This document shows, piece by piece, positions 9,654 through 12,029 of a stretch of 64,000 bases of DNA. The number at the start of each line of letters is the position of its first letter. Positions within the stretch are counted from its first letter, which is position 1. The stretch comes from a bacterium (GTDB lineage: Bacteria; Muiribacteriota; UBA6191), in assembly GCA_036339875.1 (NCBI GenBank), contig JAYZAC010000095.1:10046-74045 (forward strand), read 5' to 3'. Made by a program: the position numbers and the translations under genes. The notes below the pieces were generated by a model. It ran no database searches and was not told where the DNA came from. It worked only from the letters and a program-made list of their open reading frames with translations.

Positions 9654-12029
9654 TCAGTTCCTCGAATTACGTGGAAGTACAAAAGGTAAAATTAGTAGTA
9701 AAATCAAAATCCAATGAAACTGATAGATAATTCCCACTGAAATTATCAATGGCATTAGAAGAAATTGACCGAGTAAGCCTAATAATGGTCTAGATGATAT
9801 ATACTCTGCAATCTTTGGCGAGTATCTGTAGTACAGAGTCACGAAAGATTTACCCAGGTGCGATTTTAATAGGAATTCATCGCGAAACAAACTTAAGGCA
9901 CGAACTTCATAGCTATTCTTTCCCATGAATGATGCACTCGCTAAGAAGCATCCTCCCCCACCACCAGCCGCAGAACCAGATGATATTGGAATTTCTGGAT
10001 TAACTACTGGTGGCTGAGCTGAATTCGAAATCACTACAGCCGTTTTAGTTACTAATGGGCTGACCTGCAATGAAGAATTAGTTTTATTTGCATAGTACAA
10101 ATCGTAGGTCGTTCCAGCATCAAGCTTTAAATTACTGTAAAAGTAGTCTTGATTACCAACTTTTACAGCCGCTTTCCGCACAATCGTAGTCCCTGGAACT
10201 ATTAAATGTGAAGCGTTAATACAATTTTGACCTGATATGCAAGCTGAGATTGCAATTTCACGAGGCCGATCATTTAAAATATCTAAATCGATACTTGTAT
10301 TATTATTAAAAGATTGACGGACAATTTGATTACCGTTCACACTCAACGGATCAATTGGCTGTCCATTTACAAAGTCTGCATCATTAAATTGAACCGAAGT
10401 AATTGGCTGGGAAGCAAGTGATAAAGAATTAAGATAACTAAGCTGAACTGAAATCTGTCCTAAGCTCGGATTAGATAGAATTAGCACATTAGAGCTATTT
10501 GCCGCTATGAATAAAGGATTTTCTAAACCGGCTAGATCTTGTTGTAATGATCTTGATTGTGGACCTGAACCTTCCAGCAAATAAGCATGAAAGTTTGTCG
10601 TAGAAGTTAAACTTAAACTCGCTGCTTGTGAACCACCGTTTACGCGAATCACTCGGAAATCATACCCTGCTAAAGAAAATGTCACTGGTAATAAATTTTG
10701 GCTTACATTTAGGGAAGTAGAAATATTTAATTGCGTTCCATTAGAAAAATCAAAAAACTCCATGTTATATAGTGAATTGATACCATCAGCATTCAATGCC
10801 ACAGTAAATGCATTAAAAATATCATTAAAATTATATGAAGAACCTTCAAGACCAGCTTGAATAGATGAGATTCCATTAGCCGATGATTTAATCATTGAAT
10901 TAATTCGAGAATCTGCTTCTGAACCTACCAAACTACCGTTACTCACACTCCCACCAAGCTGTTCCCAAAGATAGGTGAAGAATAAATATCCAATTCCCCT
11001 TAATTCAGCAGAATCATAACGCTGGAAAACTTTACCTTGAATTCCTAATTCGTCACTACTTATAAGCTGACTAGAGCTTGGGTCTGCCAACCAGAAAGGC
11101 ACCTGAGATGGAGACCCAGTAGGTGCTATTAGCAAAGGCTCTCCATTGCTAAATGTTTTGTTGAATAAAGTTCTATAAATAGCATACTGTGAAAATCCCT
11201 CATTAACCCAAATAGTCTCTCCAAGATCAAATTGAGCATGAATTAGATGCTGAAATTCATGAGCTAATACTTGATAAAAATCTTTGCGAGGCAGTGCCGG
11301 AATAAACGCCCCAATTGGAGTACTATTGCCTCCTGGATTACTGGGATACATGTCCATATGGATAGCATTCATCCTGTTATTATTAGGATTAAACTTATCA
11401 TCCGGATCAAAATAACCACCTATAAATGAACCGGTAAATTGAAAGTTATCTGAGATATCATAGATTAGAACATTAAAACCTTCAGACAGTGAATTCGCTA
11501 CTGGATTCACAGAACCAAACGCTGCAATACTTTCGGGAACGATTACTTCGCTGAGGATGGTACCTATTTCTTGGATAGTATTATCTCTATCGGTAACTCG
11601 CGTAGGCTGATTTCCTACACCAAAAGCTTGAGAATTAAGATTATTATCTTGATCTTGATCGTAGTATTTCTGCTCATCAACCCATACATTAATCAACAGG
11701 TTCGAGTTTGCAACGCTAATTTGGCGCTGATATCGTAATACGAAACTGATAGTTCTAGCGCCTTCATCTACTCGAAAGTTTTGTGTACTATTCAATACCG
11801 CTACAGCATTTTGTGTAGCAAGTAAACTATTCATTTTGGCTGCTTTTTGCCATGACTTTGGTGCTGTTTTCTTAAACTTCTGTAGTAATTCCGATTGCCT
11901 GCAGAGAGCCTTAGGAATTTTCGCTGAATCTAAATGCTGTGCATCAATTTCTAAAGTTACAAGTGAGCCTGAACTTGCAAATGATAAATTCGCGATTAAA
12001 AGGAGTATGATAATTAGTCTACAAAACAT
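9654..12029 (-). CDS. secreted zinc metallopeptidase, M30 (hyicolysin)-like gluzincin, intact HEFQH, with shared C-terminal module
   Basis: Signal peptide MFCRLIIILLLIANLSFASS. HEFQHLIHAQFDLGETIWVNEGFSQY (HExxH plus downstream Glu candidates) encoded at 11247..11261. C-terminal AAGGGGGCFLASASFMG...YYRYSPKIAEYI plus hydrophobic anchor and PRNSRN tail. Confidence 0.75.
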   Translation of the reverse strand: MFCRLIIILLLIANLSFASSGSLVTLEIDAQHLDSAKIPKALCRQSELLQKFKKTAPKSWQKAAKMNSLLATQNAVAVLNSTQNFRVDEGARTISFVLRYQRQISVANSNLLINVWVDEQKYYDQDQDNNLNSQAFGVGNQPTRVTDRDNTIQEIGTILSEVIVPESIAAFGSVNPVANSLSEGFNVLIYDISDNFQFTGSFIGGYFDPDDKFNPNNNRMNAIHMDMYPSNPGGNSTPIGAFIPALPRKDFYQVLAHEFQHLIHAQFDLGETIWVNEGFSQYAIYRTLFNKTFSNGEPLLIAPTGSPSQVPFWLADPSSSQLISSDELGIQGKVFQRYDSAELRGIGYLFFTYLWEQLGGSVSNGSLVGSEADSRINSMIKSSANGISSIQAGLEGSSYNFNDIFNAFTVALNADGINSLYNMEFFDFSNGTQLNISTSLNVSQNLLPVTFSLAGYDFRVIRVNGGSQAASLSLTSTTNFHAYLLEGSGPQSRSLQQDLAGLENPLFIAANSSNVLILSNPSLGQISVQLSYLNSLSLASQPITSVQFNDADFVNGQPIDPLSVNGNQIVRQSFNNNTSIDLDILNDRPREIAISACISGQNCINASHLIVPGTTIVRKAAVKVGNQDYFYSNLKLDAGTTYDLYYANKTNSSLQVSPLVTKTAVVISNSAQPPVVNPEIPISSGSAAGGGGGCFLASASFMGKNSYEVRALSLFRDEFLLKSHLGKSFVTLYYRYSPKIAEYISSRPLLGLLGQFLLMPLIISVGIIYQFHWILILLLILPFVLPRNSRN

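Follow-up and report, generated by a model that had tools for sequence, protein, structure and literature searches.

C-terminal signals that combine a short motif holding an invariant Cys with a transmembrane helix and an Arg cluster have been described as the MYXO, JDVT, Synerg and CGP types, and every Cys-containing CTERM signal has been assigned a CPBP protease, often unlinked in the genome; these signals also rely on type II secretion (10.1101/2023.06.07.544157). For MYXO-CTERM, handling by a myxosortase together with type II secretion, by which the passenger would reach the outer membrane or cell surface, has been proposed (10.1101/2023.06.07.544157). Here we analyze a C-terminal module of about 105 amino acids, built of a Gly run, a Cys-containing box, a conserved amphipathic stretch, hydrophobic helices and a short basic tail, that ends three proteins encoded in a 64,000-nucleotide stretch of a Muiribacteriota genome (lineage UBA6191; GenBank assembly GCA_036339875.1, contig JAYZAC010000095.1, forward-strand positions 10,046 to 74,045), hereafter the window. 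The three proteins, denoted A, B and C, are the products of tandem open reading frames (ORFs) on the minus strand, and the module that they share is a member of the NCBIfam family NF041770, 'CFI-box-CTERM domain-containing protein':

4079..7270, minus strand: protein A, 1063 amino acids; signal-like N-terminus, passenger without detectable family, acidic low-complexity stretch, CFI-box-CTERM.
4079..4405, minus strand: C-terminal module of A; NF041770 match at residues 963-1029 (4184..4384), 60.9 bits, E = 7.4e-17.
7249..9483, minus strand: protein B, 744 amino acids; paralogue of C across its N-terminal ~340 amino acids, no HExxH, then CFI-box-CTERM.
7249..7566, minus strand: C-terminal module of B; NF041770 match at residues 647-715 (7339..7545), 75.6 bits, E = 1.9e-21.
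9654..12029, minus strand: protein C, 791 amino acids; signal-like segment, M30/lugdulysin-like metalloprotease region, CFI-box-CTERM.
9654..9971, minus strand: C-terminal module of C; last 105 amino acids plus the stop codon, comprising an AAGGGGG linker, CFLASASF, a helical core, hydrophobic helices and PRNSRN.
9744..9950, minus strand: NF041770 match in C; residues 694-762, 61.4 bits, E = 5.3e-17, with the Cys694 codon tgc at 9948-9950.
9675..9713, minus strand: last hydrophobic helix of C, about residues 773-785; putative single membrane-spanning helix, judged from hydropathy, the fifth helix of an AlphaFold2 model, the family alignment columns and the topology of natural fusions.
9657-9674, minus strand: basic tail PRNSRN of C, directly after the last hydrophobic helix.

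The search of NCBIfam sorting-domain hidden Markov models that a preliminary description of this DNA had suggested returned NF041770 in A, B and C, each above the curated cut-off of 40 bits and each with 67-69 of the 69 profile positions aligned. In all three proteins the Cys-Phe-Ile box follows a Gly-rich linker, as the family definition asks, and the location is C-terminal, with only the last hydrophobic helix and a six-residue tail coming after the match. An exact-sequence look-up further identified B as GenBank MEE2924101.1 and C as MEE2924102.1, both from a marine metagenome-assembled 'bacterium' and both named CFI-box-CTERM domain-containing protein. Because the family is curated and GenBank names B and C after it, the module is already known as an entity, and its earlier designation as unassigned does not hold: the 55-residue amphipathic insert that had seemed unlike any nameable domain is the core of NF041770. 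The likeness of the module's layout to sorting signals, which had also been pointed out, stands in part: the module is C-terminal, common to different cargo, follows a logic of motif, helix and basic tail, and is curated by NCBI under a '-CTERM' name, whereas the specific parallels to PEP-CTERM, MYXO-CTERM and GlyGly-CTERM fail, in that neither these nor other C-terminal sorting models in NCBIfam match A, B or C at E <= 1 and some 80 residues separate the Cys from the membrane helix. Pfam offers no family for the module; its single match, of DUF4271 to the hydrophobic tail, was sub-threshold and judged to be noise. Searches of the PDB with the module, both by sequence profile and by Foldseek, gave no match.

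Translation and inspection of the DNA confirmed that the three ORFs and their shared tail exist, with motifs, hydrophobic helices and basic tails as first listed. On the coding strand, positions 9948-9971 are gcg gct ggt ggt ggg gga gga tgc, i.e., AAGGGGGC, and the Gly runs of A, B and C are GGGGGGG, GGGAGG and GGGGG, such that the run of five to seven Gly reported earlier is uninterrupted in A and C and interrupted in B. The boxes are CFIATASF, CFIATAAY and CFLASASF in A, B and C, respectively; after the box, all three read FRD..L..S..G..V..YY..P..[AS]..I, followed by two hydrophobic helices, the first of which contains (M/I)PL, and by a tail of KISKAF (A), WKGREC (B) or PRNSRN (C), each with two basic residues. 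Any two of the three modules share 42-43% identity, a similarity far beyond chance given their matches to the family profile (E = 7e-17 to 2e-21) and the retention of the module in orthologues down to 38% identity.

Outside the module, kinship among the three proteins is uneven. B and C are 26% identical over about 340 amino acids by BLASTP, but for A, BLASTP and profile comparison (hhalign against the B/C profile; module probability 99.4%) alike show a match to them within the module alone. The view that the three are paralogues therefore holds for the tail and for B with C, and was rejected for A as a whole protein. In C, the passenger is similar to lugdulysin, a neutral metalloprotease of the M30 type (PDB 7bb8, E = 4e-14), and carries the metalloprotease motif HEFQH at residue 257, which is absent from its paralogue B. 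Seen from these sequences, the block looks like one active protease beside probable non-catalytic relatives. In place of HExxH, protein A has only HELMNFQAH, and its residues ~480-550 form a long acidic low-complexity stretch (…GGAEEDNDDGDDVEDQDENANEEEDLNENNEQVEEQ…) within a 950-residue passenger that has no family match. Gene B ends inside gene A: the two share 22 nucleotides (7249..7270) if A begins at its listed TTG, or 7 nucleotides if an ATG five codons later is used.

Far from being confined to these three proteins, the module is spread over many phyla. A profile built from an alignment of 14 modules and searched against cluster representatives at 50% identity recovered 29,622 representatives at E <= 1e-3, of which 22,150 lay at E <= 1e-10, and the pattern GCFIATA[AS][YF] occurs at no fewer than 578 confirmed sites (i.e., at least 578) in GTDB species genomes, distributed among Desulfobacterota and relatives of Geobacter, Nitrospirota, Nitrospinota, Omnitrophota, Gammaproteobacteria, Magnetococcales, Campylobacterota, Chloroflexi, Dependentiae and others. 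Some genomes hold several copies, often in tandem. Across 217 aligned modules the invariant or nearly invariant columns are G6, C7, F8, A10, A12, L25, R29, D30, L33, G39, Y46, P51, A54, L71 and P73; in a set biased towards strong matches, the box Cys is present in 221 of 221 family matches and the Gly before it in 218 of 220. The 17 orthologues of protein C that were retrieved through the passenger domain (38-84% identity) all retain both the box and HExxH.

The position of the module is as constant as its sequence. It is nearly always at the extreme C-terminus, with a median of one residue after the profile (217 of 221 cases), and what precedes it is diverse: among 64 family proteins the cargo includes fn3 (11), Peptidase_S8 (8), ASH/HYDIN-type immunoglobulin domains (6), Beta_helix (5), PKD, DUF11, Peptidase_C25, GDSL lipase and more, a range typical of tags that anchor or sort proteins by their C-terminus. 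Six loci (L020, L033, L038, L050, L061 and L074) encode Geobacter-type CFI-box proteins with an HEYHH metalloprotease-like passenger; upstream of each is a conserved protein of ~170-215 amino acids, without a Pfam family, whose gene abuts the CFI-box gene or overlaps it by a few bases.

An AlphaFold2 model of the module, built on the sequence of B with the 14-module alignment, was predicted with confidence (predicted local distance difference test score 90.5, predicted template modelling score 0.74) and consists of five helices, at residues 8-14 (CFIATAA), 20-33, 37-59, 61-82 and 84-102. The membrane helix is preceded, at a distance of about 80 residues, by the Cys and the Gly run, with a predicted folded helical domain in between. 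In the family, the fourth helix (L R... R.. L. P) carries Lys or Arg at two positions (93% and 90% of 217 modules), and the last helix is hydrophobic throughout, with an Arg cluster (RRR) behind it. The preliminary description saw a two-part hydrophobic anchor in the window proteins because their fourth helix has Q/Q (B), G/Q (C) and R/I (A) at the two positions that are basic in the family.

The orientation of the module in the membrane can be approached through natural gene fusions. Of 81 family ORFs, 8 continue in frame past the module: first comes a basic patch, then a hydrophobic segment like a signal peptide, with an AxA-type site, and finally a domain whose last residue is Phe. These fused domains, of about 210 or 280 residues, resemble outer-membrane beta-barrels, the ~210-residue type ending in LFEF and the ~280-residue type in F; for the two types, Pfam gave OMP_b-brl (E = 1e-5, under its gathering score) and a weak match to Phenol_MetA_deg (E = 3e-8). 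Genes for the same barrel types also occur separately, downstream of the CFI-box gene and abutting or overlapping it:

L004, L005, L018, L031, L032, L044, L062, L069, L076: barrel fusions, in frame after the module.
L009, 5895-6596: separate barrel gene, abutting or overlapping the CFI-box gene.
L016, 10342-10980: separate barrel gene, abutting or overlapping the CFI-box gene.
L037, 4636-5490: separate barrel gene, abutting or overlapping the CFI-box gene.

A further fusion (L047) differs, in that the basic patch is followed by a hydrophobic segment and then by a PDZ-containing tail, and four proteins with two boxes (P0093-P0096) are fused tandem genes, in which the membrane helix is succeeded by a basic patch and a new signal peptide, with a lipobox in one. 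If the downstream fused part is to be exported, the basic patch must be cytoplasmic, and the chain would then cross the membrane an odd number of times, most simply once, after a periplasmic passenger. We infer from these sequences that the passenger and the CFI domain lie outside the cytoplasmic membrane, that the last helix crosses this membrane, and that the basic tail is cytoplasmic.

Family membership, C-terminal position, predicted helices and varied cargo are shown here, and to these we add the topology derived from natural fusions, together with tethering and any later processing, each of which we infer. On balance, we favor the reading that CFI-box-CTERM is a portable C-terminal tether that keeps secreted enzymes and adhesins attached to the cytoplasmic membrane on its outer side, and consider it probable, though by no means secure; the module may serve as a processing signal as well. 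Export would proceed by way of Sec through an N-terminal signal peptide, and A, B and C do each have a hydrophobic, signal-peptide-like start as well as a 40-48-residue hydrophobic region at the end by hydropathy. The last hydrophobic helix would then halt transfer and cross the cytoplasmic membrane once, leaving the short basic tail in the cytoplasm, while the conserved domain of ~70 residues would form a small helical bundle at the outer (periplasmic) face of the membrane, with CFIATAA as helix 1, V..LR.FRD.YLL and G..FV..YY..SP..A..I as helices 2-3, and L.P in helix 4. The flexible Gly run would space the passenger from the membrane, the passengers in this case being an M30-like metalloprotease, its paralogue without HExxH and an unrelated large protein.

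Several points weigh against such a simple tether. The invariant Cys and the Gly before it would be superfluous for a plain anchor, and there is probably something more specific than anchoring at Gly-Cys. Nor would a plain anchor require G-C-F, R-D and Y to be invariant; the near-invariance of these residues and of P suggests, at the level of sequence, that a conserved partner recognizes the module or that the Cys is modified, and we consider one or the other likely. The topology derives from fusions in other organisms, not from the window proteins, and in the latter helix 4 is mostly without basic residues and fully hydrophobic; because of this, and because the tails have two basic residues, the window lineage may instead have a two-helix hairpin. 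The signal peptides were assessed from hydropathy and by eye only. Lastly, a literature search, which included the myxosortase preprint (10.1101/2023.06.07.544157), found no paper in the library searched that mentions CFI-box-CTERM or NF041770.

The most serious competitor to the tether is that CFI-box-CTERM is a cleaved sorting signal, in which case a dedicated polytopic enzyme, its gene lying at some other place in the genome, would recognize the CFI domain, the Cys would be lipidated or otherwise modified, the membrane helix removed, and the passenger sent to the outer membrane or surface. The invariance of the Cys after Gly, cargo of the types carried by other sorting tags, and the many copies per genome are all consistent with this possibility, and there is precedent in the Cys-containing CTERM signals, whose CPBP proteases are often unlinked (10.1101/2023.06.07.544157). 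The genomic surroundings give a mixed answer. As first described, the window encodes no exosortase- or rhombosortase-like multi-transmembrane enzyme, nor any rhomboid-, sortase-like or CPBP enzyme: its only polytopic proteins are two that are CNNM/CorC-like (29183..31455) and one polyprenyl glycosylphosphotransferase (57997..59292). In a broader sample of 80 related loci, taken with 10 kb on either side and yielding 984 neighboring ORFs, 97 of them polytopic, BLASTP clustering found no universal neighbor (the top clusters were generic, such as histidine kinase and ABC ATPase, besides components of type II secretion systems and type IV pili (T2SS/T4P)), and a Pfam scan of the 97 polytopic ORFs found no dominant family, CPBP not being among the families listed. 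The commonest polytopic neighbors, MFS_1 and Acyl_transf_3, occurred four times each, and several others, including Exosortase_EpsH and T2SSF, three times; no CPBP protease recurred within 10 kb of the 80 loci. The lack of a recurrent polytopic family at these loci (3-4 of 97 ORFs for the commonest) and of a sortase-like or CPBP enzyme in the window tells against a cleaved sorting signal.

There are nonetheless neighbors that fit a sorting signal. Barrels are fused or adjacent to 12 of 81 CFI-box genes (~15%, with weak Pfam support), an association that suggests a pairing of inner and outer membrane. T2SS/T4P-like ATPase (E), secretin or platform (F) genes lie near a CFI-box gene in 7 loci, and an exosortase of unassigned target type, with the generic 8TM_EpsH model as its sole match, is found within 10 kb in 3 of 80 (L010, L055 and L063; two Omnitrophota and one Smithella). 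The stretches with T2SS/T4P-like or exosortase neighbors are:

L022, 11307-16738: T2SS/T4P-like or exosortase neighbors.
L068, 11345-17606: T2SS/T4P-like or exosortase neighbors.
L055, 6021-12039: T2SS/T4P-like or exosortase neighbors.
L053, 2970-5273: T2SS/T4P-like or exosortase neighbors.
L063, 11162-12004: T2SS/T4P-like or exosortase neighbors.
L010, 13457-14338: T2SS/T4P-like or exosortase neighbors.

Against the sorting signal, the module is about 100 residues long with a confidently predicted fold, and its Cys stands ~80 residues from the helix, as opposed to the 30-40 residues of an entire tripartite signal, and all known CTERM models are without a match. Taking both sides together, we regard cleavage and sorting by an enzyme encoded elsewhere as unlikely on balance but as a live alternative to the tether.

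A further reading treats the CFI-box as the handle of an undescribed envelope-sorting route. Either an unlinked enzyme or the CFI domain itself would modify or cleave Gly-Cys, and the passenger would pass from the inner membrane to an outer-membrane barrel or to a type II secretion-like machine that displays it on the surface. The hints in its direction are the barrels at 12 of 81 genes, the T2SS-like and exosortase neighbors at some loci, and the very strict conservation of G-C-F, R-D and Y; we hold this route to be speculative and doubtful.

The absence of a detectable partner enzyme, in the window and near the 80 loci alike, could also be explained if the module processed itself. Hedgehog proteins are cleaved at a site, G|CF, that G-C-F resembles, and an N-to-S acyl shift takes place there and at the N-termini of inteins. 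By analogy, a shift at the invariant Gly-Cys bond, assisted by Arg, Asp and Tyr, would release the passenger or transfer its C-terminal Gly with no separate enzyme. The G-C-F tripeptide is indeed invariant, and R29, D30 and Y46 supply invariant polar residues within a small domain. However, this domain is predicted to be all-helical and ~70 residues long, not a Hint beta-fold; it matches no Hint or intein model and no known structure; and it lacks the conserved His or Thr that is typical of autoprocessing domains, such that the likeness comes down to three residues. Self-processing is, in our estimation, very improbable.

That the modules resemble each other by chance, as compositionally simple Gly runs and hydrophobic helices that form no functional unit, is refuted by NF041770 E-values of 7e-17 to 2e-21, by about 15 invariant columns over 217 modules, by 29,622 family representatives, and by retention of the module in orthologues down to 38% identity. 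Two assignments for the Cys were also considered and rejected: it cannot belong to a lipobox or Lgt-type lipoprotein signal, the hydrophobic segment being on the wrong side, nor to a heme or metal site, as it is a single Cys with no CxxCH and no conserved His.

Two genes lie upstream of the three CFI-box genes on the same strand:

12103..13029, minus strand: protein of 308 amino acids with one N-terminal hydrophobic segment.
13010..14770, minus strand: protein of 586 amino acids with one N-terminal hydrophobic segment.

Neither protein has a match in Pfam or NCBIfam. The five-gene block (586 amino acids, 308 amino acids, C, B, A) occurs in the same order in GCA_023954715.1 (L081) at ~40% identity, with the three modules kept, and from this synteny the two upstream genes may belong to the same unit as the three CFI-box genes. 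By eye, the N-terminus of the 586-residue protein is like the leaders of PilX-type minor pilins, a likeness that no model match supports. On the other side of the block, 439..3297 (minus strand) encodes a 952-residue protein that combines HEAT-like repeats with a class III adenylate/guanylate cyclase domain at its C-terminus and that holds the same position in the syntenic relative. The annotated genes between 14 and 37 kb are housekeeping genes (TIM, M48 peptidase, YchF, RadA, Fmt, RNase R, TrmD, RimM, Ffh and others); the two CNNM/CorC/GldE-like membrane proteins at 29183..31455 (minus strand) form a tandem pair with CBS domains. Two adjacent tetratricopeptide repeat (TPR) proteins of 826 and 919 amino acids, at 47990..53239 (plus strand), have sub-threshold similarity to the PEP-CTERM-system TPR protein PrsT.

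For the window itself the consequences are small, since the domain is catalogued and B and C already bear its name. At a larger scale, CFI-box-CTERM is among the largest C-terminal tag-like families without a published account, with ~30,000 clusters in many uncultivated phyla, and telling a permanent tether from a processed sorting signal would improve predictions of location for thousands of secreted enzymes. The topology argument from fusions and the associations with barrels and T2SS genes are concrete starting points for determining what the CFI-box does.

Among described systems, the module has a Cys in common with the MYXO, JDVT, Synerg and CGP signals but does not have their short tripartite architecture: a folded helical domain of ~70 residues, as predicted, precedes the last helix, the tails in the window have two basic residues, and the NCBIfam models of these signals give no match at E <= 1. 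Nor does it combine the features of a Hedgehog/intein Hint domain, i.e., the Hint beta-fold, a catalytic Cys at G|C, and a conserved His or Thr. The C-terminal sorting domain of the type IX (Por) secretion system (T9SS) is a folded unit of ~80 residues on diverse secreted cargo, and is a soluble beta-sandwich without a membrane helix; in contrast, the CFI-box module is predicted to be helical and membrane-anchored, and no T9SS model matches it. From PEP-CTERM with its exosortase it differs in having no PEP motif, no model match and no exosortase in the window, and from GlyGly-CTERM with its rhombosortase in that the Gly run precedes the Cys, ~80 residues from the helix, again with no model match and no rhomboid-like protein in the window. 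With both of these systems it nevertheless shares the logic of motif, helix and basic residues, a Gly-rich element, and a similar cargo of secreted hydrolases and adhesins. Within NF041770 the window copies are divergent, having S/F variants of the box, a fourth helix without the two basic residues and weakly basic tails, yet they share with the family the Gly lead-in, CF[IL]A[TS]A, FRD, YY..SP, L.P and the C-terminal position.

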